Assembly (NCBI GenBank): GCA_036488585.1
Contig: DASXHH010000004.1
Location: forward strand, 65,254-129,253
Source: Candidatus Saccharimonadia bacterium
GTDB taxonomy: Bacteria > Patescibacteriota > Saccharimonadia > UBA4664
DNA: 64,000 nt
Direction: 5' to 3'
The notes under the pieces were generated by a model. That model did no database searches. It was not told the origin of the DNA and worked only from the letters and a program-made list of their open reading frames with translations. How positions within the stretch are numbered: position 1 is the first letter of the stretch; the number at the start of each line of letters is the position of its first letter. Shown here in pieces: positions 25,113-64,000 of the stretch. Position numbers and translations under genes: made by a program.

Positions 25113-25119
25113 AATAGTA

Positions 25120-25761: not shown

Positions 25762-25798
25762 AGAATAAGCATATCTCCACCATGATTCTAATGCATTT

Positions 25799-26410: not shown

Positions 26411-26451
26411 ACGATTACTATGTTACCAAACTTCTCTGCTAAAATATCCGC

Positions 26452-27012: not shown

Positions 27013-27116
27013 GTTTCGACCAATAGCTCCAGAGATCTTGACCCTGCTCTTTTCTGGATACCGTTATACTCCCCTGGCGTGTATACTGTGCATGCTTCAT
27101 CCACAGAGAAGAAGGC

Positions 27117-27347: not shown

Positions 27348-27402
27348 ACTACTGCTGCCGGTCGTCGAACAACCCCGCACTCTCCTCCAACTGAGCAGAA
27401 GG

Positions 27403-27440
27403 CTCCGGGCACACAACAAGTGCCCGGAGCTAATTTGATT
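27403..27440 (+). terminator. rho-independent terminator (CTCCGGGCAC-acaaca-GTGCCCGGAG + T-rich tail)
   Basis: Perfect 10-bp stem followed by ctaatttgattt. Confidence 0.6.
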
Positions 27441-27489
27441 TAAAGGGCCAATACTGGATATGCTGATAACGAAACTGGAGCAAGCTGTT

Positions 27490-27867
27490 ATGCAAAAGAT
27501 TTTAATGATAGAAGATGACCCGTTAGTGGGTCGGCTGTACAAGCGCGTGTTTGAGCTCGAAGGCTTTACGATCGAGTGGGCCGAGAACGGCCAGGACGGG
27601 TTGGATAAGGTAAAGACGATGGGGCCGGATATCATTTTGCTGGACGTGATGATGAAAGGCTTGAACGGGCTCGAGGTGCTGACGCGGCTGAAAGACGAGC
27701 CGAAGACGGCCGGCATTCCGGTGCTAGTACTCACCAACGTGTCGGATGCTCGCATAACGCAGCTCGCGACCGAGAAGGGTGCGGTGGCGGCCATGGTGAA
27801 GAGCGAGACTGAGCCGGAAGGCGTGGTCGGGATGATAAAAGGAATTCTGGCAAAGGCCGGAAAATAG
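27490..27867 (+). CDS. single-domain response regulator (CheY-like receiver)
   Basis: KILMIEDD...ILLDVMMKGLNG...LVLTNVSD...MVKSE shows the receiver-domain Asp/Thr/Lys pattern. No output domain. Confidence 0.8.
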   Translation: MQKILMIEDDPLVGRLYKRVFELEGFTIEWAENGQDGLDKVKTMGPDIILLDVMMKGLNGLEVLTRLKDEPKTAGIPVLVLTNVSDARITQLATEKGAVAAMVKSETEPEGVVGMIKGILAKAGK

Positions 27868-29010
27868 ATGGGGATGCGTGAGGAGCAGGGCCTGGAGAAA
27901 CGGATCCGAGAACTCGAGGCGACCGTCAAACTCAGGACCGAGCAGCTGATTGCCTCCACCTCGCGGGCATACTCGTTTCTGGACAGCCTGCACATGGGTT
28001 TCATTATGTGTGACGTGAACCCGGAGGTGGTGCTCACCAACACCTCGGTACGGGGGTTTTTGTCGGATGAGGCACGGGGTGAATGGACGCTCGCTGAGAT
28101 CGACCAGCTGTTGGAGCCAAGCCTGCATCTGAAGGAACTCGTGACCCAGAGTCTGAAAGAGCAACGCTCGATGGAGCTTAACGAGGTGAATCTGGGTAAG
28201 CGGGTGCTGCGGCTGTTTATTGCGCCCATGGTTAATAATGAGGCGAAAGGTGACGTCCAGCCGATCGGAGCGGTGATTTTGGTGGAGGATGTGACCGAGA
28301 AAACGGTACTGGAACGATCGAAGGACGAGTTTTTCTTTATTGCTTCGCACGAATTGCGCACGCCGCTGACCGCTATTCGGGGGAACGCGTCGGTAATGAA
28401 AAAATATTATCCGGATGTAATGAAAGACCAGAATCTGAGCGCAATGGTGGATGATATTCACACTAGCTCGATGCGATTGATTGAACTCGTGAACGACTTT
28501 CTGGACGTGTCGGCGCTGGAGCAGGGCAAAATCCAGATGAACCCGGAGGCGTTTAAGCTGGATGACGTGGTGACCGAGGTGCTGCGTGAGCTGCAGAGCC
28601 TGGGCGATGCCAAGAGCTTGAAGCTGGTGGCCGGACCGGGTCTCGGCGGCACGCCGGCAGTGTTAGCCGACCGCAAACGGGTGAAGCAGGTGGTGTACAA
28701 CCTGTTGGGAAACGCCATTAAGTTTACCGACGGCGGGGGCATTACTGTGGATGCGCAGGCCGAGGGAAAATTCGCGCACTGTACCGTGACGGATACAGGC
28801 AGCGGGATGTCCGAGGAGAACCAGAAGTTACTATTTCGCAAATTCCAGCAGGCGGGCAGCAGCCTGCTGTCGCGCGACACCACCACGGGCACTGGCCTGG
28901 GGCTGTACATCTCGAAGCTGATCGTGGAGCTGTCAGGGGGCAAGATTGGTCTGGAGCACTCCGAAGTGGGCAAGGGTAGCACTTTTGGATTTACGCTGCC
29001 GGTAGCGTAA
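27868..29010 (+). CDS. cytoplasmic sensor histidine kinase (PAS-like + HisKA + HATPase_c)
   Basis: H-box FFFIASHELRTPLTAIRGN. N/G1/G2 boxes (NLLGNAIKFT, DTGSGM, GTGLGL). No TM segments. Confidence 0.85.
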   Translation: MGMREEQGLEKRIRELEATVKLRTEQLIASTSRAYSFLDSLHMGFIMCDVNPEVVLTNTSVRGFLSDEARGEWTLAEIDQLLEPSLHLKELVTQSLKEQRSMELNEVNLGKRVLRLFIAPMVNNEAKGDVQPIGAVILVEDVTEKTVLERSKDEFFFIASHELRTPLTAIRGNASVMKKYYPDVMKDQNLSAMVDDIHTSSMRLIELVNDFLDVSALEQGKIQMNPEAFKLDDVVTEVLRELQSLGDAKSLKLVAGPGLGGTPAVLADRKRVKQVVYNLLGNAIKFTDGGGITVDAQAEGKFAHCTVTDTGSGMSEENQKLLFRKFQQAGSSLLSRDTTTGTGLGLYISKLIVELSGGKIGLEHSEVGKGSTFGFTLPVA

Positions 29011-39663: not shown

Positions 39664-39709
39664 TGGTTATAGTATATATCAAAGAGCTTGTGCTTGTTGT
39701 GGTACCTCG

Positions 39710-40606
39710 CTAACCAAGGTCCATGGGGTCATGTAGCCGTAATGCATTTAGCAGGAGTGCCTTGAATAGCGTTGCATGATGGTGCAGAAAGGGCCATCTG
39801 ATTAACCGGCTCGTACGTTCTTTCACGTCAATATGGAGGACTGCTGGTGCAGGAGGCTGAACTTTGAACCCAACAAGAAGCCCAAGAACGAGTGTGGCGG
39901 TCATTGAAGCACAGAGATCAACGGCAGGAGCGATTGCCGGCGCTTCAATACTCCCGTCTGATACCGCCCGCAATACTTGAAGATCGCCATAGCTCGGGAT
40001 ATGGGGCAGCCAACGCCACAGGTTAACTTTCGCATTCCCTGAGTTGAATTGCTCCAAGTTTATATCTTTTGATAAACCCAGATATCTTTCATAGGCATAC
40101 CCAACTGGATCAAACCAAGTTACCGTTGCACCAAAACCAATTTCTACTCCCATAACTAGCGCAATCTTCTTATCTCGTGCCAATCGGGCAAGTTGTATGC
40201 CAAGCTGAGGAAGTTTGAAGTCTATTGCCTCAATAATGAGGTCGCTGCCAGAGACAAAATCCCTGATATTGGAATCGTTGATTCCGATTTCGAGTAAATC
40301 AAGCTTAATCTTAGGGTTGATGTCGCGGCACAGTTTAGCAATTGTATCTGCCTTGGATTTGCCAATTGTGCTTTGGTAGCTCCCCTCTTGACGATTTAAG
40401 TTTGATATAGAAAAGACTTCAGGATCTGCAATTTTCAGATGCCCCACTCCGAGGCGCGTGAGCTCAACTGCGATTCTGCCACCGACGCCCCCCACACCTG
40501 CAATGGCTATGGTGGAGTTCCCAAGCTTGTCTTGTTGGGTTTTACTAATAAATCCAGTATTTCTGCTTAGGTGATTTTCTTCCGGTTCACGCTTCATCGA
40601 CTGCAT
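39710..40606 (-). CDS. ThiF/MoeB/HesA-family E1-like adenylyltransferase
   Basis: Rossmann P-loop IAIAGVGGVGGRIAVELTRLGVGHLKIAD. No obvious C-terminal CxxC or rhodanese domain. Confidence 0.8.
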   Translation of the reverse strand: MQSMKREPEENHLSRNTGFISKTQQDKLGNSTIAIAGVGGVGGRIAVELTRLGVGHLKIADPEVFSISNLNRQEGSYQSTIGKSKADTIAKLCRDINPKIKLDLLEIGINDSNIRDFVSGSDLIIEAIDFKLPQLGIQLARLARDKKIALVMGVEIGFGATVTWFDPVGYAYERYLGLSKDINLEQFNSGNAKVNLWRWLPHIPSYGDLQVLRAVSDGSIEAPAIAPAVDLCASMTATLVLGLLVGFKVQPPAPAVLHIDVKERTSRLIRWPFLHHHATLFKALLLNALRLHDPMDLG

Positions 40607-41420
40607 CTCTTAATACTTCATCGCCACGACTATAGTTTAATGCTCTCAGATGATGAGGTTTGAGATATTTAGTGGGAAGCCCCTCCAGGAAGAACCGAAT
40701 ATACTCCCGGTGAAGAAGACGCTGGGCGGGGTTAAGGCTTCTAGAGTTTGAGATCATTATATCCAGCGAGCGATCAACCTCAAGCGCGGCCGGTATGACC
40801 CTACTCCCCATATAGAAGGTTTCTTCACCTATCTGCATAAGAGCATCACGAAACAAGAACTTGAGTCGGTTGTAGTAGATCGCATCACATGCCATTAACC
40901 AAAGTTGGTGCTGAGCCCGAACCGAATGCTGCCATAATGCACGATAAATTAGGAAGCTAGCGAAGCTTGAGTAGCCTTTTCGTTTTGCTAGAGCTGAAAT
41001 CTCCACACATTGCATGGGATCTAACGATTCTATGGCTTTACGAACGTTATTTTCAAGTTTCAGCTTTTCCATGGTCGGGAAGGAAGCGTGGCCTTTCTTA
41101 CCTTTAGGGTGGATCTGCCTAGCTGTGGCGACAATTTGCTCCTCGCTACCGTTCATTTCCACGACAACAAAATATGTCGCGTGAGACTGATATGGGTCAT
41201 GCTCAACAGAGATGGTGCCATTTGCGTCTATATGGCCGGGCTCTATATATCCGTTTTCAAGATACACCTCGGCATGGAGACGCTTTGCTTGGTGAAGATG
41301 AGTTTGTTTGGTTACACGTAACACCTTCAGGTTCGGGTGCCCAGATCTCAGAAGGCGACGGTACGCGAGCATCCTTGAAATTTTTCGGATCATTAAGAGT
41401 CCTTTTGCTTGCCTTAACAT
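40587..41420 (-). CDS. GNAT-fold autoinducer-synthase / N-acyl amino acid synthase-like protein
   Basis: AKRLHAEVYLENGYIEPGHIDANGTISVEHDPYQSHATYFVVV follows the a.rLR..VY.eelg....dg.E.DeyD..a.h.l pattern of LuxI/N-acyl-amino-acid-synthase (PEP-CTERM-associated) families. Call by motif only. Confidence 0.45.
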   Translation of the reverse strand: MLRQAKGLLMIRKISRMLAYRRLLRSGHPNLKVLRVTKQTHLHQAKRLHAEVYLENGYIEPGHIDANGTISVEHDPYQSHATYFVVVEMNGSEEQIVATARQIHPKGKKGHASFPTMEKLKLENNVRKAIESLDPMQCVEISALAKRKGYSSFASFLIYRALWQHSVRAQHQLWLMACDAIYYNRLKFLFRDALMQIGEETFYMGSRVIPAALEVDRSLDIMISNSRSLNPAQRLLHREYIRFFLEGLPTKYLKPHHLRALNYSRGDEVLRDAVDEA

Positions 41421-41463
41421 GGCATTATGGTAAAAATATAGCAGCTACTAATATAAGAATGAA

Positions 41464-42135
41464 GTGATAGACACAGATCGTGCCGCTCCGAAAGTAACAT
41501 GGCTTGATTCCGATGTTGCGGCTCGGATTATCCACGCAAACTCATTATTATGCTATTGGTTATCAAAGGGAGTTGGCAATTTACTTAGCCACTCTACTCG
41601 CATTTCTCTAGACGAGGGAGATATTGACCCCAAGTCACTCTATGTTGTTGCTGCAAATCACCAGTGTCGCATTGATCCTTTTCTGATTTGTGCACAGATG
41701 CCATACTCCGCATGGAAAAGGCTCGGAGACTTCAGATACTTTCTCTACAATCCGTTATTGGACATACCCGTGTTGGGGTCTGTTTTGCGCGGACTTGGTT
41801 GCTTTCCTGCAAAATATCACACAAAGTACCCATACGGCTTAGGCTACGCCACAGAACAGCTCTCAAAAGGAAGAAGCATATTTATATTCCCCGAGGGACG
41901 CCGTACGATTCAGGGAGAATACCCCGCACACAATGGAGTGGCAGTGCTCGCAAAGCTCCCACGGGTGATGATAATCCCTGCACATATTGAATGGCGCGAT
42001 CGAGGGGCTTGGCATGGCTTTAAAATCGGCATCGGAAAGCCTTTTAACGGCAAAGACCTGACGGCACAAGAGATACTCAATAGAGTATATGAAGTTCCGG
42101 TTGATAAGCCCTTACGGATAAGAACGAGAGCTTAA
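41464..42135 (+). CDS. lysophospholipid acyltransferase (PlsC/LPLAT family)
   Basis: VVAANHQCRIDPFL (HX4D acyltransferase motif) and FPEGRRT (motif III). Confidence 0.75.
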   Translation: MIDTDRAAPKVTWLDSDVAARIIHANSLLCYWLSKGVGNLLSHSTRISLDEGDIDPKSLYVVAANHQCRIDPFLICAQMPYSAWKRLGDFRYFLYNPLLDIPVLGSVLRGLGCFPAKYHTKYPYGLGYATEQLSKGRSIFIFPEGRRTIQGEYPAHNGVAVLAKLPRVMIIPAHIEWRDRGAWHGFKIGIGKPFNGKDLTAQEILNRVYEVPVDKPLRIRTRA

Positions 42136-54178: not shown

Positions 54179-54215
54179 TGGAGGGCCATCTTTGATGCTA
54201 TCGCAACTACACGTC
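54179..54215 (+). repeat. conserved intergenic box, copy 1 (TGGAGGGCCATCTTTGATGCTATCGCAACTAC)
   Basis: Member of the box family TGCT(A/T)TGGAGGGCCATCGTAG-AGGCTATCGCA.. seen at least 10 times between 54.2 and 63.6 kb. Confidence 0.6.
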
Positions 54216-54221
54216 AAGCAA

Positions 54222-54977
54222 TTACCTCTGTTGATCCGTCGGGCGAATCAAGATTTCATTTACGTCAACGTGGTCTGGTTGGGTGACGGCGTAAAGTACC
54301 GCAGCTGCTATATCCTCGGCCTCAAGTTGCCTCACCGATTGCGCCCATTCATTCACCTGTCGCTTAGTTTCTTTATGTGTGATGTGATCACGTAATTCGG
54401 TCGCTACTAAGCCGGGCTCTATTAGTGTGGTTCTTATTTTGTGCTCTACCAGCTCCTTACGCAGCCCCTCGGTAAATCCGTTTACTCCCCATTTTGTCAG
54501 ATTGTAAACGGCACTGTCCAAATTGGCGGTACGGCCAGCCACGGACGAGGTCTGAACAATATGACCGCTCTTTTGCTTCACCATCTGTGGAAGTACAGCG
54601 TGCGTACACCAAATCAACCCGTACAGGTTTGTATCAATCATTCGCCGCCAATCCGTCACATCGGCATCGATTACCGGCCCGAGTAGCATCACTCCAGCAT
54701 TATTGAACAGTACATCGATCTTGCCGTACTTTTCCTGCGCCGTTTGCACCATATTATTAACACTGGCGTAATCGGTGACGTCGGTCGTAATTGCCAGCGC
54801 CCGCCCGCCGTCTTTATCAATATCTTTGCGCACCTGCTCAAGCCTGTCTTCTCGTCGTCCAGCCAGGACTGTAATGGCGCCTTCACGGGCTAACATTCTG
54901 CCTGTTGCTTCACCAATGCCGGATGTTGCACCCGTAATGATCACTACTTTGTCCTTGATACTATGCTGAGGCATCAC
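54222..54977 (-). CDS. SDR family NAD(P)-dependent oxidoreductase
   Basis: VVIITGATSGIGEA (TGxxxGxG), NNAG and the catalytic YxxxK context. Confidence 0.85.
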   Translation of the reverse strand: MMPQHSIKDKVVIITGATSGIGEATGRMLAREGAITVLAGRREDRLEQVRKDIDKDGGRALAITTDVTDYASVNNMVQTAQEKYGKIDVLFNNAGVMLLGPVIDADVTDWRRMIDTNLYGLIWCTHAVLPQMVKQKSGHIVQTSSVAGRTANLDSAVYNLTKWGVNGFTEGLRKELVEHKIRTTLIEPGLVATELRDHITHKETKRQVNEWAQSVRQLEAEDIAAAVLYAVTQPDHVDVNEILIRPTDQQR

Positions 54978-55070
54978 AATCTCCTTTTGGCATTAAGATA
55001 CGGAAACAGCAATCCTCTGAATTTAGGCTAAATGCTGAGAGCTGATCAAACCAACGCCCAAACAAAAGGT

Positions 55071-55110
55071 GCTATGGAGTCCATCGTGCTCGCCGTTGCA
55101 GCCGGAATTA
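55071..55110 (+). repeat. conserved intergenic box, copy 2 (GCTATGGAGTCCATCGTGCTCGCCGTTGCAGCCGG)
   Basis: Near-identical to copy 4 (GCTATGGAAGGGCCATCGTAGCCCCTATTGCAGCCGAG). Confidence 0.6.
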
Positions 55111-55370
55111 TGGACAAGGGGCCTTATATTGTTACGGCTAGATCATTCGAACCTCGTTAGCGGTTTGGTGGCGCGACGAACGACCGCGGCAGATTTGTGC
55201 TGTTGCTGGATCTTCAGCAAGGAGATCATTTCGGTGGCCGGGTAGAAGCCGTCGCTGGTGAACTGAGCAAGCGTATCCATAGCATTCACCGCGACGATCC
55301 AATCAACCTCCTTGGAGGAAAGTAACTGCTTGAGCCAGTTAAGGGCGCGATTTTTCTTATAGCGTAGGAG

Positions 55371-56297
55371 TCAGCGCCAGAATTCGGTGAGCTGGCCGGC
55401 GAGAGCTTTGCCTTGGCTGTAACCGACTTGCGCAGACGGCACCCACATAGATGGATCCATCACATTCATGCCTAACGAGTTGCGGGTGTTCAAGTCGTAT
55501 AGCACCCCACTATCGGGGAAGATGGTTTCGACTCTGCTGCCGCCGGCACGTAGTTCGTCGCTCTGGGTGGCGAGATGCATGCCCCAGTCTAGAGGCATCC
55601 GTGATCTGCCGCCGAATGGTGATAGCACCAGCACCCGCCCGTATCCGGCCGCCAGATCGGCGTTCTCGTTGCGCCGGTAGCCGCCGTCAATGTACCGGTG
55701 ATCGCCGATGATGTAGGGAGGGGCACCCGGCCCGGAAGTGCTGGCGGCGACGGCGTCCACCATGTCGACTCCGCTGTGGCGGTCGAACACGGCCGGTTCA
55801 CCGGTATGGGCATCAACCGCCGTGATCTGCACCGTTTGTTCCGGCCATTGCTGACTGGGCAGCCGGGCGGCGACGGTAGCCCGCCACTGCGTTCGCCTGG
55901 ATGCGTCCGAGACGGCATCCAGCTCGAGCGCCGACGCGCCCAATCTGCGGCGCATGTCAGACACGTCCCGCGCTGCAGCGATGATTGTGCTCATCTTTTC
56001 CAGAGGGCTCACCGCCGACCTATTCGGGCGCTGTACACCGCCAGATCCGGCCGGACTAGTTCGTAACTGGGACGGAGCGGCAAGAACTTCGGCCAGCAGT
56101 TTGGACGGGTTGGTACTAGTGATCTGGACCGCGGTCGTCGCTCCGGCCGAGGTGCCGATGATCAGATCGGCATCCGTCACATCCAGCCCGGCATCAAGCA
56201 AGCCGGCGATGACGCCGATCTCCCACCCATTGCCGGCCGCTCCGCCGCCGCCAAGGACCAACGCTCGCTCACCCCGCAAATTAGTGTCTTTACTCAT
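55371..56297 (-). CDS. patatin-like phospholipase
   Basis: GGGAAGNGWEIGV (oxyanion GGGxxG), GTSAG (GxSxG) and IDGG (DGA/G) motifs. Confidence 0.8.
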   Translation of the reverse strand: MSKDTNLRGERALVLGGGGAAGNGWEIGVIAGLLDAGLDVTDADLIIGTSAGATTAVQITSTNPSKLLAEVLAAPSQLRTSPAGSGGVQRPNRSAVSPLEKMSTIIAAARDVSDMRRRLGASALELDAVSDASRRTQWRATVAARLPSQQWPEQTVQITAVDAHTGEPAVFDRHSGVDMVDAVAASTSGPGAPPYIIGDHRYIDGGYRRNENADLAAGYGRVLVLSPFGGRSRMPLDWGMHLATQSDELRAGGSRVETIFPDSGVLYDLNTRNSLGMNVMDPSMWVPSAQVGYSQGKALAGQLTEFWR

Positions 56298-56396
56298 CGA
56301 TTTATTCGTTATTGTCGTCGAGGTTAATCTTGATAATAGTATCTGGCATCGGCTTCATAACTTAACTATAAAGACTATAAAGCTAAAGTAAAAAAG

Positions 56397-56460
56397 CAAA
56401 AACGACCTTCGGTTTAAGCATAAGTACTATAGAGGGCCATCATGGAGGCTATCGTGTTGG
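56397..56460 (+). repeat. terminator-like hairpin + conserved box, copy 3 (aaaaacgaccttcggtt TAAGCATAAGTACTATAGAGGGCCATCATGGAGGCTATCGTG)
   Basis: A-run/hairpin/T-run followed by the box. Overlaps the stop of the NTF2-like pseudogene. Confidence 0.6.
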
Positions 56461-56845
56461 CACTGAATGATGCTCGTGTTTGATAGTCCACGCTCCATTG
56501 ACCTTCTCCAACCCAATGGTGAGCCTGAAGTCTAATGGAATGAATACGCCGCCTACTTTATCTTCACACCGCATACCTGCGAAGCAGAAGGCCGCCCGAT
56601 CATCGGCGACTACATGTAGTTCTTTAATGTCGAACACGCCCTTTTTGGTGTTGGCAAAGAATATTTCCCAGGTTTTTCGGTACCCCCCCTAGCCCGATTA
56701 ATTGAAAGGGCTCGGGAACGTCGAACATTACCATATCCGGAGAATGATGGGCTAGTATCGTATCCAGATCTCGCGAGCGAACTGCCATTGCCCAATTCTG
56801 TACCAACTCTCGGACCGCCGACGATTCTTTTGACTCAGGGCTCAT
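56449..56845 (-). pseudogene. NTF2-like (SnoaL/DUF4440-type) protein gene interrupted by +1 frameshift in a C7/G7 homopolymer
   Basis: Two adjacent ORFs (56624-56845 and 56449-56637) in frames offset by one. Removing one C from the run at 56683-56689 gives a continuous ...FDVPEPFQLIGLGGYRKTWEIFFANTKKGVFDIKELHVVADDRAAFCFAGMRCEDKVGGVFIPLDFRLTIGLEKVNGAWTIKHEHHSVP. Confidence 0.6.
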
Positions 56846-56919
56846 TTTTAATTCTGCTATTTATGTGCGCTACGCGGCCATCGCTATTGCAACTGAAATC
56901 TCAGTTGGTGCCAAAACAA

Positions 56920-57264
56920 CTACTTATCTTTTACGTCCCAACCGAAATAGACTTCTAAACGGACGATTTTATGTGCATCAAATGTAACTATGTCGGTGTT
57001 ACGCCCCCTTGCACCGTCAGGCTTAGTGTATTCATGGGTAATTATAACTTCATTACCACTTTCTATTACTCGAATATATTCAATGTCCTTAAGGTTGCCT
57101 CCCTGAGGCCAACACCTCTTAAAGAAACCGGCACGATCCAAAAATGGGTCAGGCGGTGCCGAGAATGTGAAGTTAGGAGCCAACAATCTTTCTACAAAGT
57201 CATTTCGGTCTACCTCTGAAAATGCTTTATAGAACTGCTTTACAAGTCCAGGGCGATCACTCAT
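56920..57264 (-). CDS. NTF2-like (SnoaL_2/DUF4440-type) small protein
   Basis: 114 aa. FYKAFSEVDRNDFVERLLAPNFTFSAPPDP...VYFGWDV. Paralogous to 58368-58703. Confidence 0.6.
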   Translation of the reverse strand: MSDRPGLVKQFYKAFSEVDRNDFVERLLAPNFTFSAPPDPFLDRAGFFKRCWPQGGNLKDIEYIRVIESGNEVIITHEYTKPDGARGRNTDIVTFDAHKIVRLEVYFGWDVKDK

Positions 57265-57340
57265 GCAGACATCATATGGCGAGAATAGTTGGGTGTCTAC
57301 GATGGAGGGTATGGCCCCGTGCTGGCTAACTTTGCTAAAT

Positions 57341-57412
57341 AAAAAACGACCTGGCGGTCCTTTTAAGCATAATTGCTATGGAAGGGCCATCGTAGCCCCT
57401 ATTGCAGCCGAG
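57341..57412 (+). repeat. hairpin + conserved box, copy 4
   Basis: aaaaaacgacctggcggtcctttTAAGCATAATTGCTATGGAAGGGCCATCGTAGCCCCTATTGCAGCC. Confidence 0.6.
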
Positions 57413-58244
57413 CTCTCTGTAAGCCAACCCTATGTGTGCGATTTAGGTAAAGTATGATATCGGCTGCGGCGATCAAGATCGGCAAAGCACTTAGCCCGGC
57501 TACTACCTCCATTCCATAAAGAGCGGCACTGACTCCAAAGCCCAACCCGATTAAGCCATACCCGATTGCTGGAATCAGGAGCAAATAAGCCTCGGCGTAA
57601 TACTTTCCGGGTCTGCAATATTCATACAGCCTAAATATTCCCGTCACTACAACTGTGACAATGAACCAGCCCATAAAATTGCCAAGTGGAACACCGAAGT
57701 ATGCGCCATGGTCAAGCCACGTCCATGAACCTTCCCTGATTTTGACCGGATCCATAATTAAGTCGATTGCAACTGTGAGCACGCCATCAAGAGCAATGAG
57801 TGCCAGCAACGCAGTCCATGATGAAGATTTTTCGGATGGCCCCTGAGGGTCCAGCCAGCGCCTAAAGCCATTGGTGATAGAGTATGCCGTGTAAATGAAT
57901 ATTGCCCAGTATATAGGTATGATATATGGGACGCCCCAAAGCTTGGGCTGGCCTCCATTATATGTATAGTGACCGCCAAAGAAGGTTCCGCTTTTTAAGC
58001 CCCAAATCTCAAAAAACAGGCCGGTTAAAGCAGCTAGCATGAAAAAAGAAACGGCTCTTCTGGACCCGAGCTGCCACTTTGAGTGCAAGGCTAATAGGCA
58101 AGCCAGAGCCACTAATACGATCGACGCAGCGTAATCCTTGTTAGAATGCAGGCCGGCTGCTCGAAGAATAACATCTAAGACGCCACTGACTGCGGCAATT
58201 ATCAGCAGAACATACATCCATTTTGCATTTTGGCCAAGCTTCAT
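57399..58244 (-). CDS. DUF422/carotenoid-biosynthesis-associated-type membrane protein
   Basis: GVPLGNFMGWF is the hallmark of the DUF422 (COG2324) family. About 7 TM helices. Confidence 0.65.
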   Translation of the reverse strand: MKLGQNAKWMYVLLIIAAVSGVLDVILRAAGLHSNKDYAASIVLVALACLLALHSKWQLGSRRAVSFFMLAALTGLFFEIWGLKSGTFFGGHYTYNGGQPKLWGVPYIIPIYWAIFIYTAYSITNGFRRWLDPQGPSEKSSSWTALLALIALDGVLTVAIDLIMDPVKIREGSWTWLDHGAYFGVPLGNFMGWFIVTVVVTGIFRLYEYCRPGKYYAEAYLLLIPAIGYGLIGLGFGVSAALYGMEVVAGLSALPILIAAADIILYLNRTHRVGLQRARLQ

Positions 58245-58258
58245 GCCGCTATCATAAC

Positions 58259-58325
58259 AAAAACGACGCTTCGTTAAGCATAAGTGCTTTGGAGGCCATC
58301 TGTAGCAATCGATTACAAGCTAGTC
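58259..58325 (+). repeat. hairpin + conserved box, copy 5
   Basis: aaaaacgacgcttcgtTAAGCATAAGTGCTTTGGAGGCCATCTGTAGCAATCG. Confidence 0.6.
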
Positions 58326-58367
58326 CGCTGCTATTTATAGCTGGGTTATGACTTCCAGCAACTCCTC

Positions 58368-58703
58368 CTACTTAACGTCCCACCCAAAGTAGACCTCGGA
58401 TCTGCAGACTTTGTCACCGTCAAATGTGAGTACTTCGGTATTGCGCCCTGCGGTTCCGTCCAGTTTTGTTGCCTCATATGTTACCACCACCTCGTCACTG
58501 TGCTCAATTAGGCGCACAAAGTTGAAGGTGCTGCGACTGCCAGCGCCTGGCCAGCATCGTTCAAAGAAACCATTCCGATCTAAAAGAGGATCCGGCGGAG
58601 CTGAGAACGTAAAGTCTGGGGCTAACAAATTATCTACGAAGTCACGATCGGCCTTTGCGAAGGCTAGGTAAAAATCTTTTGCTAGCTGGGCGTGGCGACT
58701 CAT
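58368..58703 (-). CDS. NTF2-like (SnoaL_2/DUF4440-type) small protein, paralog
   Basis: Start at MSRHAQLAKDFYLAFAKADRDFVDNLLAPDFTFSAPPDP... About 60% identical to 56920-57264. Confidence 0.6.
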   Translation of the reverse strand: MSRHAQLAKDFYLAFAKADRDFVDNLLAPDFTFSAPPDPLLDRNGFFERCWPGAGSRSTFNFVRLIEHSDEVVVTYEATKLDGTAGRNTEVLTFDGDKVCRSEVYFGWDVK

Positions 58704-58756
58704 AAGCACATTGTACGCCTGTAATCTGATGGGGATGTAAGATTTCACTCGTCTAT

Positions 58757-58806
58757 ACGCTGTTCAGCGTTGCACTGGAGGGGCCATCGTCGAAGCTGCC
58801 AGAACT
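58757..58806 (+). repeat. hairpin + conserved box, copy 6
   Basis: acgctgttcagcgt tgcACTGGAGGGGCCATCGTCGAAGCTGCC. Confidence 0.55.
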
Positions 58807-58849
58807 GCCTTAGTCCACAGCTTAACAGCAGATACTCTCTTGGCGGTTG

Positions 58850-59239
58850 CTATTTTATAAAAGACACCGTGCCCTTGGGATAGACTAGTGCGCCCTTAAG
58901 CTGGGTGATTGGTAGCCATACCACCTTATAACTGTTGGCAGATGTCTGCTTATGCTCTTCCATCCATACTGGCTCAGCGCTTTCGTCTAATGATGCCCTA
59001 ACAATCCAGGTCTCTCGGGCGGTTTGCGAGAGGTCTTTTTCTTTGTTCTCTACCGTAATATCAACCCCTAACTCTTCTTTCATTTCCCGAATAGCAGCCT
59101 GCTCCGGTGTCTCTCCCTCTTCTACCCCACCTCCCGGTAATACATAGTACATGGGCTCAGGAGTCCTGGTGCGCTCAATTAAAAGCAACATGTCGTCTTT
59201 AATGATAAGGACTGCGCTTCTTGCTTTCTGTTGCATCAA
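58850..59239 (-). CDS. NUDIX hydrolase
   Basis: Nudix box GGGVEEGETPEQAAIREMKEELG (GX5EX7REUXEEXGU). Confidence 0.8.
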   Translation of the reverse strand: MMQQKARSAVLIIKDDMLLLIERTRTPEPMYYVLPGGGVEEGETPEQAAIREMKEELGVDITVENKEKDLSQTARETWIVRASLDESAEPVWMEEHKQTSANSYKVVWLPITQLKGALVYPKGTVSFIK

Positions 59240-59751
59240 GAATATCCGTTTAAGACTCAGATTGTATCAAATTGGAAATACTCGAAACCTGGGTTGCAAA
59301 ACGTTTTTCAAATGCAAAGCTTGCCACCTAAGTACTTTGCTTATTAACGGCATCCTTAAACTAAGAGCTACTACGGATAAACAAAAGGGTGGAACATCAA
59401 ACATTACGAAATCCGCAGAGTGGTATCCAAGAATTGTATCTATCTCTCTTACGGACAGCTCTTCGGCCCAATTCTCACTAAGATTCTTTACTATACCAAA
59501 CCGGTGGGACTAAACCGGTGGGCACCGTGGAGACCACGAACATAAATAACAGTTTTGCAAAGCTGTTATTTATCCTGGAGTGTCATCATACTTCCAAAAT
59601 ATTACGCTTATATTGTATAAATGCACAATGCTTTTGCGGCGGGTTCGGTAATATTGTTTCCAAGTTGTATTCAGGCAATGTTGTATTCAGGCAATGATTT
59701 ATTAAACAGTAAACGTAAGGTGAGGACGTCTACTAATCAGGATCCTCCCCC

Positions 59752-60492
59752 ATGAACAATAAAGTTAAAAATTCCGCTAGGAGCAGGTACCCCAACCAGT
59801 TCAGCGAGAGATTATTGGTTGATTTGAAAGCGAAGTCGAACCAGCCGACCCTGGATTTGCGAGGTTATGGTGAAGAGCCGCGCAAATCCGCCCATGTTCT
59901 GGATTTGAGCCGTGATCAAACCAACAGGCTCGCCACTGAATTAAAGGACAATTTTTTTGAAATGATGCCGGCTACTCCTCTAGCGCCCAGGCGGTTTGAC
60001 GTCGACGGTATCAAGCCGGCCCTAGCCGACCGTCTTGGAGACAGGCACTGGCGCAAAGCGGCGCTTCCGATCGTCGCCATTGCCGGGCTGCTAGGTATAA
60101 TTGGTACCGCCCAGCTGATGTTCGCGCCTCACAATTTGAACACTAAACCCGCAGCCACCGAACCGGCCGGCAAGGGATCCAGCACAAGTTCCAGTACAGG
60201 TGTCAATTCGACAGCCCAATCCGGCTCGCAGCCCCCGGTCGTCCAGCAATCTGGGGGTGCTACAGTCGGCGGCTCCAGATCCACGTCCGGTGGCTCGTCA
60301 TCCTCATCCCCGGCTGGCGGGGGGACCTCTACGCATCCAGCAGCAGGCGGCTCGGGCGGCGCTGCAGGTAGCGGTGGCTCCGCGCAGACGCCTTCTGGCG
60401 GTTCGCAAACGATTGACCCGGCAATTACCGTTCCTGGTGCCGGTACCGCACGAGTAGAAGTCCAACCGACGCCAGCTCTGCTGGGTCCGTAA
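59752..60492 (+). CDS. hypothetical single-pass membrane protein with Gly/Ser-rich extracellular tail
   Basis: 246 aa with a charged N-terminus, one TM (AALPIVAIAGLLGIIGTAQLMF) and a G/S/T-rich low-complexity C-terminus. Higher GC than its neighbours. Confidence 0.45.
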   Translation: MNNKVKNSARSRYPNQFSERLLVDLKAKSNQPTLDLRGYGEEPRKSAHVLDLSRDQTNRLATELKDNFFEMMPATPLAPRRFDVDGIKPALADRLGDRHWRKAALPIVAIAGLLGIIGTAQLMFAPHNLNTKPAATEPAGKGSSTSSSTGVNSTAQSGSQPPVVQQSGGATVGGSRSTSGGSSSSSPAGGGTSTHPAAGGSGGAAGSGGSAQTPSGGSQTIDPAITVPGAGTARVEVQPTPALLGP

Positions 60493-60520
60493 TATCGAGC
60501 TAAGCTTTGCGGTAGTGAAT

Positions 60521-60578
60521 AAAAATAACGGCTGTAGAGCCGTTATTTAAGAATAAGTGCTTTGGAGGGCCATCGTAG
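60521..60578 (+). repeat. bidirectional terminator hairpin + conserved box, copy 7
   Basis: aaaaataacggctgtagagccgttaTTTAAGAATAAGTGCTTTGGAGGGCCATCGTAG. Lies between convergent genes. Confidence 0.65.
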
Positions 60579-60675
60579 TAAATAGTACCACTTTGTAGCA
60601 CTGTGCGATTTTGCCGCTGAAGTGTTCATAGAAAACTTGCGTGGGTCGGGAAGGCTATCGTGGGCGCTGTCGTAA

Positions 60676-61224
60676 CTATATTTTCCTCATACGAAGTAGA
60701 ATCAGCCGAATAGTTTTAGGTGTCCGACTCGTAATGTCTTTGCCGAACTGCTTTTCTAGCCATGTCATATAGTCTGGGGTTTTGCCACTAGTTAAATCAA
60801 CGGACCCGTACGTAGCGTTCGCTATACGGCCCAAGAGAGTGTATGGTTTGTTCTTCGGTGTGTGGGGCAATTCCAGTGTAATAGTTTGTGCATGCCTAAA
60901 GAATGTAATTAACAGGTAAGAAGATTTGTTATGATCTTGCTCAAGGCCCTTAAACGGGTCAGAATCAATCAAATGTTGGAGTTCTGACTCGCTTCTTACT
61001 ATGACGCTTCTGCTAAATCCAAGTTTTTGCGGCAAAGCTTTTTCTATACGCCCAGCCAAAGCTTCTTCATCGTTGCTTGGGCTTTCAAATATAATATTTC
61101 CACTAGCGAGTACGACCTGAACGCCAGTAAACCCGAGACCCTCAAAGAAAGACTTAAACTTTTCGCTCGTCATGTTAGGGTCGCCTGGCCCAATCCCTCG
61201 TAACATGGCGGCATACTTCATCAT
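60676..61224 (-). CDS. DUF1697 family protein
   Basis: MKYAAMLRGIGPGDPNMTSEKFKSFFEGLGFTGVQVVLASGNIIFES matches the DUF1697 N-terminal consensus (MxYxALLRGIN-G---). Confidence 0.7.
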   Translation of the reverse strand: MMKYAAMLRGIGPGDPNMTSEKFKSFFEGLGFTGVQVVLASGNIIFESPSNDEEALAGRIEKALPQKLGFSRSVIVRSESELQHLIDSDPFKGLEQDHNKSSYLLITFFRHAQTITLELPHTPKNKPYTLLGRIANATYGSVDLTSGKTPDYMTWLEKQFGKDITSRTPKTIRLILLRMRKI

Positions 61225-61267
61225 GAGACCACTATAGCAAAACACTCCACGTTTCGAGGTTATACCA

Positions 61268-61340
61268 AAAATAACGGCTTTGTGAAGCCTTTATTTTGCG
61301 AATTATGACTGGAGGGTCATCGTAGAGGCTACCGCAACGG
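61268..61340 (+). repeat. hairpin + conserved box, copy 8
   Basis: aaataacggctttgtgaagcctttattttgcgAATTATGACTGGAGGGTCATCGTAGAGGCTACCGCAACGG. Confidence 0.6.
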
Positions 61341-61368
61341 AATTCCAGCGCCGGCCCGCAGGGTTACA

Positions 61369-62343
61369 TCATTTCTCGACGAATGAACAGAGCTCATCCC
61401 AAATTGGGTCGGCGATGTCGATTTCGTCCAAAGAGTTTGCCTTGTCGGTGAGCTGATCGCCGCGCTCGCCCGGCAGCAATACCATCTGGCCGGCGAGCGG
61501 CTTGGCCGAGGCCACTTTCCCGACTAACTCTGTGGCATTTTTAAGGTACGCATCTTTGCCAATAAGTAAGCCGGGGTCGAGTGCCATAACAAACATGCCT
61601 GCACCCTCATCTTTATTGGCGTCCACAAATGACGCGCCGGAGAATGGTCCGCCGAGAAGCTGGACGAGTAACGAGAGGCCAAAGCCCTTATGTCCGGCAA
61701 AAGTCGAGACGGAGCCGTCGAGAGCTTTGGCGGCATCAGTGGTGGGGTTGCCATCGGCATCGAAGCCAACGCCTTCCGGCAGTGGCTCACCCTTGAGCTT
61801 GTACTCCATGACGCCAAAAAAGGCCATGGCAGCGGTGGCGGTGTCGAAGACGACGGATTGCTTGCTGGTTGGAAAAGCATAGGCGAGCGGGTTGGTGCCG
61901 AGCTTGGCTACAGACGAGCCGTGGGGCGCGACGAAAGGGGGTGTTCCGACGCAGATGAGACCGATGTAGCCGGCATCGGCGATCTTGCGGGCGAAGTAGC
62001 CAATGGCGCCGGAGGAGGTGAAGGTGTGGTTTGAGCCGACAATACCGACGCCATGCTCGGCCGCGAGTTCGTTGGCGAGTTTTACGGCCTTGTCGGTGGC
62101 AACCATGGCATGGCCGCCCGAGATGAGTGCGCCGCACTTATTGCGTTTGACCACCCGGTATTCTTCGACTTCGCCGGCTTTGGGCACGCCGCCCGTGGCG
62201 ATTTTGGTGATGCCTTGGTTGTTGCCTCGGAGTTGCGCGTAGAGCAGAGTTTCGGCGATTATTTTGGCCTCCTCCCCCTTATAGCCAAGCTTGGCCACCC
62301 CAGCATTTACTTTGCCCTTGAGTTCCTGAACCTTAACTTTCAT
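61369..62343 (-). CDS. Ldh_2 family (malate/L-lactate/sulfolactate-type) NAD(P)H-dependent dehydrogenase
   Basis: GHKGFGLSLLVQLLGGPFSGA and ...VGSNHTFTSSGAIGYFA... are characteristic of the Ldh_2 (PF02615) family. Confidence 0.75.
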   Translation of the reverse strand: MKVKVQELKGKVNAGVAKLGYKGEEAKIIAETLLYAQLRGNNQGITKIATGGVPKAGEVEEYRVVKRNKCGALISGGHAMVATDKAVKLANELAAEHGVGIVGSNHTFTSSGAIGYFARKIADAGYIGLICVGTPPFVAPHGSSVAKLGTNPLAYAFPTSKQSVVFDTATAAMAFFGVMEYKLKGEPLPEGVGFDADGNPTTDAAKALDGSVSTFAGHKGFGLSLLVQLLGGPFSGASFVDANKDEGAGMFVMALDPGLLIGKDAYLKNATELVGKVASAKPLAGQMVLLPGERGDQLTDKANSLDEIDIADPIWDELCSFVEK

Positions 62344-62391
62344 GCTCGTCCTCGATGCGGTTATGTGGCCCTTACTATAGCAAAAAGCTAC

Positions 62392-62472
62392 ATAACAAAA
62401 TAACGGCTCCGTGGAGCCGTTATTTTGTTAATAATTCCCGTAGGACCACCGTGAAGGCTATCGCATCTGCGG
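62392..62472 (+). repeat. hairpin + conserved box, copy 9
   Basis: aaaataacggctccgtggagccgttattttgttAATAATTCCCGTAGGACCACCGTGAAGGCTATCGCATCTGCGG. Perfect 9-bp stem with A/T flanks. Confidence 0.6.
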
Positions 62473-62493
62473 TTCAGTTTGCCGAAACCTCAC

Positions 62494-63501
62494 CTATTTT
62501 AGAATCCGAATTCTCTTAAAGTTCTTTCCGGTAAGCTTGGGGATCTCCATATCCACAAACTCGAAACTGGTTTCTTCTAGCTGGGCAGGCGAAAGAATTA
62601 GTTGCCGATAACTGTCGACTTTTGGCCTGAGGACGCCTGCACCCACCCAAAATTTCATGACGGAGTCTTTCGTTGTCCCTACCGAAATCATGGTGCCGGA
62701 CGGCAGGGGCTGCGTAAAGACTAGGATCTTTTCGGGACGATTCTTGTGATAACCAGGCTCAGCCTTGGTTGCCATATAAGCGTTGTGAAGGTGATAGACC
62801 TTTTCCTTCCAGAGCGGATCCCGAGTCTGATCAAGTGTGACCTTAGTGTTGAGCTCAACAGAGGCGCGTTGCTCGGCGGTGAGCTGCGGCAAACCGCCCG
62901 GGGTGGCTGCGATGAGCTTCGCTAGACTTCGTGTCAGTGATTGGTCAAACGCCTCAGGTGACTCAAACCGACTGCCAACCGGAGTGATAGTCATTTTGAG
63001 GTTTTTGGGCTGATAGGGTTTGAGAAAATCCATCACTGCTTGGTAGCTCGAGATGTATGTATGAATGTCCTTAAGCGGAATATTATCGATTTTGGGCACA
63101 ATGAGATCATCCACAAAGAAATCAAACCAGACGCCGGGTTCATAGATTTCGCAGATGGCCTTTACCCAGCGGGTGTAATACATTAGGGCAAAGAGCTCGG
63201 CCCAGTCTGCCTCGGGCGATTCCTTGAGCCGCCAAAGTTTGTACGCGCCGTGGAGGAAGGTGAAGTTGATGGGATGGCGCTGCTCGACATTGACACGGAT
63301 AGCTTCGCGAACATGTTCGACCAGGGTGTCATTTGCCGAGTACTTACGAAATTTTTTGGACATGACGGCTCTAAAAATGGCCTCTTGCAGCCCATAATCG
63401 TTCGCGGGCACTGGCTGAGCAGAAGGCTCGGCAAGATCATCTAGTTTGGATAGGATGTAGTCTTGAGGTGTCATAGGTAATTGGAGATGCGGGGTGGACA
63501 T
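62494..63501 (-). CDS. hypothetical protein (~335 aa)
   Basis: ORF from MSTPHLQLPMTPQDY... with no recognisable motif. Lower GC. Confidence 0.45.
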   Translation of the reverse strand: MSTPHLQLPMTPQDYILSKLDDLAEPSAQPVPANDYGLQEAIFRAVMSKKFRKYSANDTLVEHVREAIRVNVEQRHPINFTFLHGAYKLWRLKESPEADWAELFALMYYTRWVKAICEIYEPGVWFDFFVDDLIVPKIDNIPLKDIHTYISSYQAVMDFLKPYQPKNLKMTITPVGSRFESPEAFDQSLTRSLAKLIAATPGGLPQLTAEQRASVELNTKVTLDQTRDPLWKEKVYHLHNAYMATKAEPGYHKNRPEKILVFTQPLPSGTMISVGTTKDSVMKFWVGAGVLRPKVDSYRQLILSPAQLEETSFEFVDMEIPKLTGKNFKRIRILK

Positions 63502-63586
63502 GACTCCACCGTGGTTAGCTTTGCAAGCTAGCACCTATTCTCGGCCACCGCATCGCCACGGATAATTGTCACTGTTGCAACTGCCG

Positions 63587-63617
63587 TAAGGGGCATCGGG
63601 CGTGAGCTGCATACGGC
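63587..63617 (+). repeat. degenerate copy 10 of conserved box (GTAAGGGGCATCGGGCGTGAGCTGCATACGG)
   Basis: Resembles copy 6 (GGAGGGGCCATCGTCGAAGCTGCC). Lower identity. Confidence 0.35.
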
Positions 63618-63714: not shown

Positions 63715-64000
63715 TCATCCATAATAATTCCCAACACCCCGGTTTACCGGCTCGGTCATTTCTAAGTCCCAGACTGCGCAATTAGGGATTTGTTCTGTGA
63801 TTAGACTTTCAAGTGTAGAGACTCCTAACGCTGCACGAATTACCCTCATTGGGCCACCATGGGCCACTACTAGTACATCCTCATCTGGACGCTGATCGTA
63901 TATCTCATTCAGGAACTCTAATACGCGTTCACTTAAATCTGTCCACGACTCACCACCTGGAGCTTTCTTGGTTAAGGCGGTCCCCTCTAGTAGTTGCCAG
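63715..64000 (-). CDS. histidine phosphatase (phosphoglycerate-mutase-like) family protein; N-terminus outside window
   Basis: Reverse translation ends ...ESWTDLSERVLEFLNEIYDQRPDEDVLVVAHGGPMRVIRAALGVS...* The VLVVAHGG block is typical of the His-phosphatase superfamily. Confidence 0.6.
   Translation of the reverse strand, partial: WQLLEGTALTKKAPGGESWTDLSERVLEFLNEIYDQRPDEDVLVVAHGGPMRVIRAALGVSTLESLITEQIPNCAVWDLEMTEPVNRGVGNYYG

Follow-up and report, generated by a model that had tools for sequence, protein, structure and literature searches.

Background

Transfer RNA genes serve as the insertion targets of additive flexible genomic islands, such as fGI1 of Alteromonas, in which repeats of the tRNA 3′ end bound the gene cassettes that have been added (PMC4119200). 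Successive tRNA-targeted insertions, some of them by large serine recombinases (LSRs), likewise make up the tRNA-linked islands of Prochlorococcus, whose tycheposons measure 4–200 kb and carry integration and replication modules (bioRxiv 10.1101/2020.12.28.424599). The locus considered here is an array of small accessory genes parted by a short recurrent box, which lies at one end of a 64,000-nucleotide (nt) stretch from a Candidatus Saccharimonadia bacterium (assembly GCA_036488585.1, contig DASXHH010000004.1, positions 65,254 to 129,253; hereafter the window) and runs on beyond it to a tRNA-Lys(CTT) gene. Saccharibacteria and other Patescibacteria have genomes of approximately 1 Mb with few recognised mobile elements, and their gain of accessory genes is poorly understood. 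A further point of comparison is provided by the cis-mobilisable elements (CIMEs) known from the accretion of streptococcal integrative and conjugative elements, including at tRNA-Lys(CTT). These are integrase-less units flanked by attachment (att) sites, which stand in tandem with an integrase-bearing element at a single tRNA gene and are carried along when that element excises via an outer att site; they are few in number, kilobases long and served by tyrosine recombinases.

The boxes are probably att-type junctions of units that were serially inserted at the 3′ end of tRNA-Lys, the locus being an additive tRNA island in an unusually regular, integron-like form whose units are either mobilised in trans or fossil. 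The anatomy of the junctions, their identity with the tRNA, the presence of such arrays behind this tRNA in many genomes, the variable and reshuffled gene content and the association with an LSR in relatives are all observed directly; site specificity of the insertion, the LSR as its enzyme and independent movement of single units are inferred. The locus shares with the additive islands a conserved tRNA gene as target, variable accessory units parted by direct repeats of that gene's 3′ end and a size and content that differ among relatives, and with the additive island of Methylopumilus even the tRNA species, Lys(CTT). It differs in that the units are nearly all single-gene (median 705 nt), in that a 20-nt non-tRNA arm stands beside only 12 nt of tRNA, in that each unit comes with its own −10/N6/ATG start and with a trailer and terminator of tRNA type, and in the Patescibacteria host and an associated LSR that is absent from the array. 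As with the tycheposons, tRNA genes are targeted in a streamlined genome, some of the enzymes being LSRs, older insertions are pushed into the island and partial tRNAs are scattered there; the units described here, in contrast, have no integration or replication modules and are far smaller and more uniform. Compared with the CIMEs, up to approximately fifteen sub-kilobase units are stacked here and the candidate enzyme is a serine recombinase. The tRNA-anchored additive island is a known structure; this locus is set apart by the regular single-gene format, the 20-nt arm with 12-nt core, the built-in terminator and start, the Patescibacteria host and the link to an LSR family. No description of such Saccharibacteria arrays was found in the searchable literature. 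The locus represents a conserved hotspot behind tRNA-Lys(CTT) that stacks single accessory genes, each in the order terminator, minimal promoter, gene and att-type site.

A recurrent box with the 3′ end of tRNA-Lys as its core

A profile search (nhmmer) of the window, for which twenty of the twenty-five seeds were taken from boxes of other loci, returned ten matches (54179, 56432, 56876, 57383, 58781, 60563, 60651, 61310, 62446 and 63568), all on the minus strand and all within 54179–63587. The pattern GGAGGGCCATCGTAG, with up to three mismatches allowed, matched seven times, always on the plus strand and within 54180–61325; shuffled sequence gave a mean of 1.9 matches and none of 100 shuffles reached seven. 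Repeat searches grouped the box copies into families of 24–35 nt and also recovered A-run/hairpin/T-run structures. An earlier note, made from the letters of the window, had reported a recurring motif, and a box does stand at or near every position it listed, in a single orientation and confined to this part of the window. All ten listed copies are present, those at 55071, 58285 and 63587 being degenerate and visible by eye or by regular expression; further decayed copies at approximately 56876, 59576 and 60651 had been overlooked. The second and fourth copies, given as almost identical, are only around 70–75 % alike. The lower G+C content claimed for the region is real (0.46–0.54 over 54–64 kb, against 0.56–0.60 elsewhere in the window).

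On the gene strand (minus) each stop codon is followed by the box, approximately 17 nt, a hairpin, a T-run and the start of the next gene. The box consists of a conserved arm of approximately 20 nt (AGTTGCaAtAGCnTnTAC) and a 12-nt core (GATGGCCCTCCA), with nAtntcAGTtGCaAtAGcntntAC GATGGCCCTCCA as the consensus of thirty well-kept copies. The core is identical to the 12 nt in which a tRNA-Lys(CTT) gene 2.8 kb past the window end terminates; these 12 nt take in the final base of the T stem, the 3′ strand of the acceptor stem (ATGGCCC), the discriminator T and CCA. This gene lies on the source contig (JGI Ga0376663_0000068; 152,941 bp), which was found via the Ldh_2 protein of the array and taken with 10-kb flanks as locus L001, the reverse complement of the window (L001 position x equals window 72344 − x). 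Here tRNA-Arg(CCG), tRNA-Arg(TCG) and tRNA-Lys(CTT) follow just past the window end. The tRNA-Lys(CTT) gene (L001 5479–5555; window-equivalent 66789–66865) heads the array, with three further units between it and the window end, and approximately fifteen junctions are spread across 12.6 kb of L001. Save for one, the genes that the boxes part are encoded on the minus strand.

The tRNA-Lys gene ends in ...GGGTTCGAGCCCCA GATGGCCCTCCA, with ...CCCCA before the core, and continues with GTTATTATACTTAGAATAACGGCTTCGTAGAGCCGTTACTTTTTT downstream, while the gene-strand box reads ...AGTTGCGATAGCCTCTAC GATGGCCCTCCA and is followed by a trailer, hairpin and T-run resembling those 3′ of tRNA-Lys. Boxes and tRNA-Lys share core, trailer and hairpin and part directly upstream of the core, the 20-nt arm not being tRNA sequence. 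The stretch after the core is a copy of the region downstream of tRNA-Lys. The match of the core to the 3′ end of tRNA-Lys, just beyond the window, had escaped the earlier note; its "GGAGGG element" is the complement of the tRNA CCCTCC(A) and nothing separate, and its "palindrome" AAGCATAAGTGCTT is tRNA-trailer sequence. Attempts to read the arm as a degenerate tRNA T-arm, and the box as a dif/Xer-like site, failed on reading of the sequence.

The junctions were assessed further in a set of forty well-kept examples, comprising ten tRNA ends and thirty boxes. A hairpin with a T-rich tail lies within approximately 55 nt of the CCA in 36/40, and at these junctions it has the make-up of an intrinsic terminator, namely a hairpin containing G+C followed by a T-run 3′ of the gene. 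The hairpins belong to several unrelated sequence classes (AATAACGGCT.., AACGACC.., AAAGACTCC.. and AAAGTCCC..) in which the structure is kept. Hairpins flanked by A- and T-runs had been described correctly, as exemplified by the perfect 18-bp stem at 62393–62430, but on the gene strand they stand 3′ and not 5′ of the box. From its sequence, the hairpin after the box looks like an ordinary intrinsic terminator of the upstream gene. A TANNNT hexamer followed after 5–8 nt by an ATG that opens an open reading frame (ORF) of at least 40 codons occurs at 21/40 junctions, the spacing being 6 nt in eighteen of the twenty-one, and TG often precedes the hexamer by one base (TGTTATGAT). This arrangement may represent an extended −10 promoter that would yield leaderless mRNAs of the cassette genes. 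Counts from a generic promoter and terminator scan were no higher than in shuffles, and the purpose-built junction count was used in its place. The full TG-n-TANNNT-N6-ATG arrangement is found straight after the T-run at 57265–57300, 58245–58260 and 61246–61262 in the window and at junctions of loci L003, L005, L006, L008, L010 and L017.

The position of the box between stop codon and terminator means that it is probably transcribed in each mRNA, and the hairpins vary in sequence but not in structure, as might be expected of a 3′-untranslated motif that serves processing, stability or regulation; the other reading of this sort would be a small transposable repeat, non-autonomous and of the miniature inverted-repeat (MITE) or repetitive extragenic palindromic (REP) kind. 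Both had been proposed in the earlier note, and both are very improbable. RNAalifold found no conserved pair involving arm or core among 23 junctions, and a scan of the window at the Rfam gathering thresholds matched tRNA-Glu only and not the box, leaving a shared regulatory or processing site unsupported for the box itself. A MITE- or REP-like element is contradicted by the lack of dispersal (no copy elsewhere in the 64 kb), the single orientation and the absence of terminal inverted repeats, target duplications and a conserved fold. Neither kind of element explains the 12-nt identity to tRNA-Lys or the anchoring at tRNA-Lys in ten loci.

Two arm alleles are common (GTTGCTACAGCCTGTAC and GTAGCAATAGCTTCTAC) and occur with two trailer types in all four combinations (4, 3, 2 and 6 junctions), which points to exchange between arm and trailer, i.e. 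at the core. The trailer type directly 3′ of tRNA-Lys also varies between genomes, with one type in some and the other in others, which is expected if each insertion replaces the 3′ flank of the tRNA.

A further short sequence, CCATCGTAGACA(Y)GCAACT, lies 3′ of the terminator at approximately 57294–57314 in the window (L001 approximately 15030–15050), at L001 5615–5633 and at approximately 1060–1080 in L014. Apart from a gap of 4 nt, it matches the box arm (AGTTGC..TCTACGATGG) in reverse complement, and it also supplies a TAGACA −35-like hexamer 17 nt 5′ of TATGAT or TATTAT. It may be an inverted att half-site or a mere promoter.

Comparison with integrons

The array resembles an integron in its fixed proximal site, in its stack of small, same-orientation, mostly single-gene cassettes that each end in a conserved site, and in its variable and reshuffled content, which includes toxin-antitoxin genes. 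The integron attC site is an imperfect palindrome of approximately 57–141 nt with RYYYAAC ... GTTRRRY at its ends, which folds in single-stranded form. Small, mostly same-strand accessory genes parted by a repeated site, with toxin-antitoxin genes in relatives, could thus be taken for a cluster of attC sites lacking an integron integrase (CALIN), with the boxes as attC. This identity is exceedingly improbable, and a classical integron was rejected. There is no IntI or other tyrosine recombinase nearby, with no Phage_integrase match in the window or L001. No RYYYAAC/GTTRRRY inverse-core and core pairs (R″/R′ motifs) terminating an imperfect palindrome were recognised on reading, and arm and core are unpaired. 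The hairpin ends AAATAAC/GTTATTT are off the consensus and a second hairpin class has no such ends. Although the sizes and orientations of the units would fit, they have promoter-like sites of their own, with a −10-like hexamer 5–8 nt before the ATG at the 21/40 junctions mentioned above, and the site itself reproduces the 3′ end of a tRNA. In an integron, by contrast, the proximal site is attI and the cassettes depend on Pc, while here the proximal site is a tRNA 3′ end and the units apparently have their own promoters and terminators. The defining features of attC and attI, which the earlier note had suggested looking for, accordingly fail.

Recurrence and reshuffling of the array in Saccharimonadia

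An exact-pattern scan of 185,579 species genomes matched two Saccharibacteria metagenome-assembled genomes (MAGs), and a scan of JGI metagenomes gave thirteen loci, three of which were chance matches inside a coding gene. A syntenic relative, L021, was found using MurB beside the tRNA cluster as a handle. In ten independent loci (L001, L003, L005, L006, L008, L009=L017, L010, L011, L014 and L021) tRNA-Arg(TCG)/tRNA-Lys(CTT) is followed by boxes in the orientation of the tRNA, so that in L001 and nine others the array is placed directly 3′ of an intact tRNA-Lys(CTT). L012 and L013 are array fragments, and two further arrays (L026 and L027) are linked to an LSR, which brings the total to at least fourteen independent loci. 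The units are bounded by direct repeats of the tRNA 3′ end, the 12-nt GATGGCCCTCCA occurring approximately fifteen times in L001 and five times in L003. Box-to-box spacing has a median of 705 nt over 33 intervals, mostly with one ORF per unit in the orientation of the box. Three box patterns had no match in 2.9 million viral contigs, giving no indication of a phage origin.

The content of the arrays is accessory and varies among L001, L003, L013, L017, L021 and L026. In other genomes the units encode AAA_18 and PRK kinases, ROK, Polyketide_cyc2, APH phosphotransferase, Exo_endo_phos, DUF3800, His_Phos_1, BrnT, RelB, 2′-5′ RNA ligase, DUF998, TetR/DoxX and restriction-modification proteins; NUDIX, SnoaL and DUF1697 proteins are also among the contents of the arrays. 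Some cassettes are common to several loci. The Ldh_2 cassette is shared by L001 and L013 (87 % amino acid and 80 % nucleotide identity), as is a SnoaL cassette (78 % amino acid identity) of which L014 also has one, and DUF1697 and patatin cassettes are common to L001 and L021. These common cassettes differ in position and neighbours; the order in L013 is SnoaL, a BrnT unit and Ldh_2, while in L001 Ldh_2 stands five units before that SnoaL. The earlier suggestion of a cassette boundary or recombinogenic element is supported in that the boxes part single-gene units, the same module bounds unrelated genes in at least fourteen loci and homologous cassettes are reordered; in related genomes the boxes do mark the borders of variable cassettes, whose content differs by genome.

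The junction modules of unrelated units, which span approximately 85 nt from arm to T-run, are 78–85 % identical over 80–96 nt, and some stretches of arm and core are identical over 30 nt. Duplication of one gene's flank in tandem, which would leave long alignable flanks, is not what is seen; simple local tandem duplication can be excluded because the similarity between junctions of unrelated units stops at the approximately 85-nt module. The same similarity would suit exchange by homologous recombination, in which the modules provide portable homology for RecA-type swapping, gain and loss of units after DNA uptake, with any site-specific enzyme either confined to the founding of the array or not involved at all. 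No recombinase is encoded locally, and the breakpoint that separates L011 from L017 falls past the terminator and not in the core, as this explanation would have it. As an account of the whole array it is nevertheless unlikely, since it leaves unexplained that a copy of the tRNA 3′ end is joined to a non-tRNA arm in every unit, that the array always starts at tRNA-Lys and that LSR elements end in the same arm, and the stretches of identity are short for efficient exchange. Within an array formed by site-specific insertion, homologous recombination between the junction modules is probably a further cause of unit shuffling and loss.

A large serine recombinase at tRNA-Lys(CTT)

A candidate enzyme is found in related Saccharibacteria. 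In L026, obtained by extending locus L004 of a Saccharibacteria MAG, the gene next to tRNA-Lys(CTT) encodes a 558-amino-acid LSR (Resolvase, Recombinase and Zn_ribbon_recom domains); it is convergent with the tRNA gene and overlaps it. Past the LSR lie small ORFs, including one for a DUF5659 protein, and then restriction-modification genes; 11.5 kb from the tRNA follow arm and core (GGTTGCGATAGCGTCTAC GATGGCCCTCCA) and three more boxed units. A direct repeat, TGGCCCTCCAA, stands at both ends of this 11.5-kb element. The element in L027, of approximately 6.7 kb and with different cargo, ends in TAGTTTCGATAACAGATAC and the core. The LSR family comprises 1,154 proteins at E ≤ 1e-20, the best 120 of which are nearly all approximately 545–575 amino acids long, and in each of the three other loci inspected (L027/28/29, L030 and L031) its gene likewise adjoins tRNA-Lys(CTT), making four independent loci with L026. 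Because the LSR elements L026 and L027 end in the same arm and core, the arm is best read as the element-side half of the attachment site of this LSR family, and the boxes as junctions of att type. The resident tRNA of L026 and L027 ends in CCTGGCCCTCCA, whereas the boxes keep G(A/G)TGGCCCTCCA, which suggests that the core travels with the units instead of deriving from the tRNA at hand. A C-terminal remnant of this LSR, 50 codons long (42 % identity), is also found directly after tRNA-Lys at 8665–8811 of L021, which belongs to the window's own clade and is syntenic with the window genome (RNR-NrdR-Trx-TrxR-MurB-tRNAs).

The LSR gene is part of a conserved module in which DUF5659, two to three small ORFs and the approximately 555-amino-acid LSR converge with tRNA-Lys(CTT) (L026 4333–6044; L027 10001–11706; L030 10001–11706; L031 1610–3312). 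The called LSR ORF extends approximately 40 nt into the tRNA gene, such that its last thirteen or so codons run antisense to the 3′ half of the tRNA. A second, different LSR (572 amino acids) at 9256–11008 of L031 likewise overlaps the 3′ end of tRNA-Glu(TTC), beside a Replic_Relax gene, and tRNA-targeting serine recombinases may be general in these genomes.

Proposed mechanism and its alternatives

In the proposed mechanism, units that carry the arm, a mimic of the tRNA end and a trailer with terminator would insert at the 3′ end of tRNA-Lys by site-specific recombination. Every insertion would rebuild tRNA-Lys, supply a new trailer and terminator and shift the older units outward, leaving a junction of arm and core behind. 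The likeliest enzyme would be an LSR of the family that adjoins tRNA-Lys(CTT) in related Saccharibacteria. Because the enzyme is not encoded in the window, the units there would either have been moved in trans, alone or dragged along with an LSR-bearing element, or be fossil. The LSR-bearing elements appear to use the same site and could excise together with neighbouring units via an outer box, in a form of accretion and cis-mobilisation.

Several observations weigh against this mechanism. Neither the 64-kb window nor the adjoining 8 kb encodes a recombinase, and only two LSR elements (L026 and L027) could be read to their far end. LSR att sites are approximately 40–50 bp long with imperfect dyad symmetry around a central dinucleotide, and no clear dyad was found in the attP inferred here, where the symmetry, at best 11–12 of 21–25 positions with no consistent centre, was uninformative. 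LSRs recombine only attP with attB, or attL with attR in the presence of a directionality factor, and therefore serial insertion at a single tRNA needs an extra assumption. L022 and L023, which are syntenic and more distant (MurB 67 % identical), have small accessory genes after tRNA-Lys and no boxes. Between L011 and L017, an identity of 95 % extends over tRNA, trailer and terminator and breaks off only past the T-run, which suggests a breakpoint outside the core, and the homologous SnoaL and Ldh_2 cassettes carry unlike trailers and terminators upstream. No free circular cassette and no empty or filled polymorphism was seen, the two other assemblies of the species sharing the same order, and when the SnoaL, Ldh_2 and 346-amino-acid proteins of the window were sought on other contigs with new neighbours, as a sign of recent mobility, only the same arrangement was recovered.

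The main rival is a graveyard of full-size LSR elements, which inserted at tRNA-Lys and were trimmed by deletion to the present units, so that the boxes would be dead attR scars and single units would never have been mobile. It agrees with the canonical directionality of LSRs, and the first "unit" of L021 is the C-terminal LSR remnant described above. The LSR elements of L026 and L027 measure 6.7–11.5 kb and not 0.7 kb, several boxes of the window are decayed, and pseudogenes are present. Such remnants are also held in tycheposon islands (bioRxiv 10.1101/2020.12.28.424599). Even so, this origin is somewhat unlikely. Searches with tblastn found LSR fragments in no array save L021. Pfam on the larger ORFs, with NCBIfam and PHROGs on the cassette proteins of no known family, detected no recombinase domain in the window, in L001 or in the units of any array that lacks an LSR. 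More than thirty units share a tight build of trailer, terminator, −10, N6, ATG, gene and an arm within approximately 25 nt of the stop codon, which random deletion would not yield. The junction proximal to the tRNA always has a normal trailer and terminator, and the boxes of L003, all five of which score 26–37 bits, are not decaying. The uniform compactness of more than thirty units, together with the lack of LSR debris outside L021, argues against a graveyard as the whole story.

Serial site-specific insertion of the units can be taken a step further. The array may, though this is less likely, be a working functional analogue of the integron in Patescibacteria, in which the 3′ end of tRNA-Lys(CTT) would act as attI, arm, core and trailer as attC, and an LSR in trans would move sub-kilobase cassettes, each bringing a tRNA-compatible trailer, a terminator and a leaderless promoter. 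For epibionts with reduced genomes, the array would in that case be a private stock of single accessory genes open to exchange. If single units are mobile, the array would constitute a second, independently evolved system of cassette capture, derived from a serine recombinase and a tRNA gene, and the LSRs would be new tRNA-targeting integrases with defined sites. The hotspot, whose genes include those for small enzymes, toxin-antitoxin pairs, phosphotransferases and restriction-modification proteins, is linked to a widespread LSR family that targets the same tRNA, and even if the array is fossil, the box provides a simple marker of the flexible gene pool in Saccharimonadia metagenome bins.

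Cassettes and junctions of the array in the window

The gene families named for this region in the earlier note were borne out by Pfam, and all features below, given in ascending order of window position, lie on the minus strand unless otherwise stated. The outermost well-kept junction is the box at 54179–54213 (L001 18154), with 29.3 bits in the nhmmer search and a perfect 12-nt core, and without a terminator. The short-chain dehydrogenase cassette gene at 54222–54977 (adh_short, E = 7.6e-62) is followed by a decayed box at 55071–55105 that was read in the sequence (GCAACGGCGAGCAC GATGGACTCCAT on the gene strand) and scores only 4.8 bits, and by a patatin-like phospholipase gene at 55371–56297 (Patatin, E = 3.9e-16) which has 66 % amino acid identity to a fragment in the L021 array. 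The next junction (56395–56465) comprises a box at 56430–56465 (16.9 bits), the trailer TAGTACTTATGCTTAAA and a weak hairpin with a T-run at 56395–56416. Beyond it lie a frameshifted SnoaL/NTF2-like pseudogene cassette (56449–56845; overlapping ORFs 56449–56637 and 56624–56845) and a decayed box (CAGTTGCAATAGC GATGGCCGCGTA; 56871–56906; 13.3 bits). The SnoaL_2 cassette gene at 56920–57264, assigned by Pfam, has a promoter-like TAGACA-17-TATGAT-6-ATG upstream; it is the one with 78 % amino acid identity to the L013 cassette and a counterpart in L014. Its upstream junction (57340–57415) combines a box at 57380–57415 (21.0 bits), the trailer ATAGCAATTATGCTTAAA and a terminator-like hairpin with T-run at 57340–57365.

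A Caroten_synth/DUF422 membrane protein is encoded at 57399–58244 (E = 4.1e-26), with TATGAT-6-ATG upstream. The junction that follows (58255–58322; repeat family D6) has a core with a 1-nt deletion (GATGG-CCTCCA, 58290–58300), the trailer AAGCACTTATGCTTAAC and a hairpin with T-run at 58255–58277. A second SnoaL_2 paralogue (58368–58748; Pfam), a box without a terminator (GGCAGCTTCGAC GATGGCCCCTCCA; 58777–58812; 13.5 bits) and a NUDIX hydrolase gene (58850–59239; E = 1.9e-17) come next, then a decayed junction at 59542–59600 (inverted repeat I22), in which the core GATGACACTCCA (59576–59587; L001 12757) has two mismatches and the hairpin spans 59542–59573. The sole reverse-oriented gene (59752–60492, plus strand) encodes a 246-amino-acid Ser/Gly-rich protein with no family match. 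The adjoining junction (60520–60598) has a box with a perfect core at 60563–60598 (22.9 bits; exact 15-mer), the trailer AAGCACTTATTCTTAAAT and a hairpin at 60520–60549.

A decayed box at 60648–60683 (11.0 bits) overlaps the stop codon of the DUF1697 cassette gene (60676–61245; Pfam), which has TGCTATAGT-6-ATG upstream and 44 % amino acid identity to a cassette in the L021 array. The junction at 61268–61345, with a box at 61310–61345 (28.8 bits), a trailer and a terminator-like hairpin at 61268–61298, separates it from the Ldh_2 dehydrogenase gene (61369–62343; E = 2.2e-70), whose homologue with 87 % amino acid identity occupies another array position in L013. A box with a diverged core (GGTGGTCCTACG; 62439–62474), a trailer and the perfect 18-bp hairpin (62393–62430) with its T-run form the junction at 62393–62474 (inverted repeat I5). 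The 346-amino-acid protein encoded at 62494–63534 has no match in Pfam, NCBIfam or PHROGs. One or more decayed boxes at 63553–63617 (arm-like GTATGCAGCTCACGCCC with GATGCCCCTTAC, then CAGTTGCAACAG; 8.7 bits, E = 0.15) precede the 3′ part of the next cassette gene, His_Phos_1 (63715–64000), from which the array runs on outside the window.

Signs of gene decay within the array include the patatin tail (55130–55370), which is severed by a stop codon, the frameshifted SnoaL/NTF2-like gene (56449–56845), and a short NTF2-like remnant (repeat family D7) at 59390–59450 within the long spacer 59240–59751. The C-terminal half of the 246-amino-acid protein is rich in Ser, Gly and Pro, and the hairpin at 60520–60549 doubles as the terminator of its gene.

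Other low-GC stretches of the window

A second array at the tRNA-Glu of the window was considered and rejected, as the 3′ end of this tRNA is not repeated and no LSR remnants were found there. A low-GC stretch (0.46–0.49) at 38000–42000 carries ThiF-family and other genes of no known family beside a histidine kinase, without boxes or a tRNA. At 23921–28000, tRNA-Glu(TTC) is followed by small accessory genes of low G+C content (0.48–0.51), among them RibD_C, a methyltransferase and a Ser_hydrolase-like gene.

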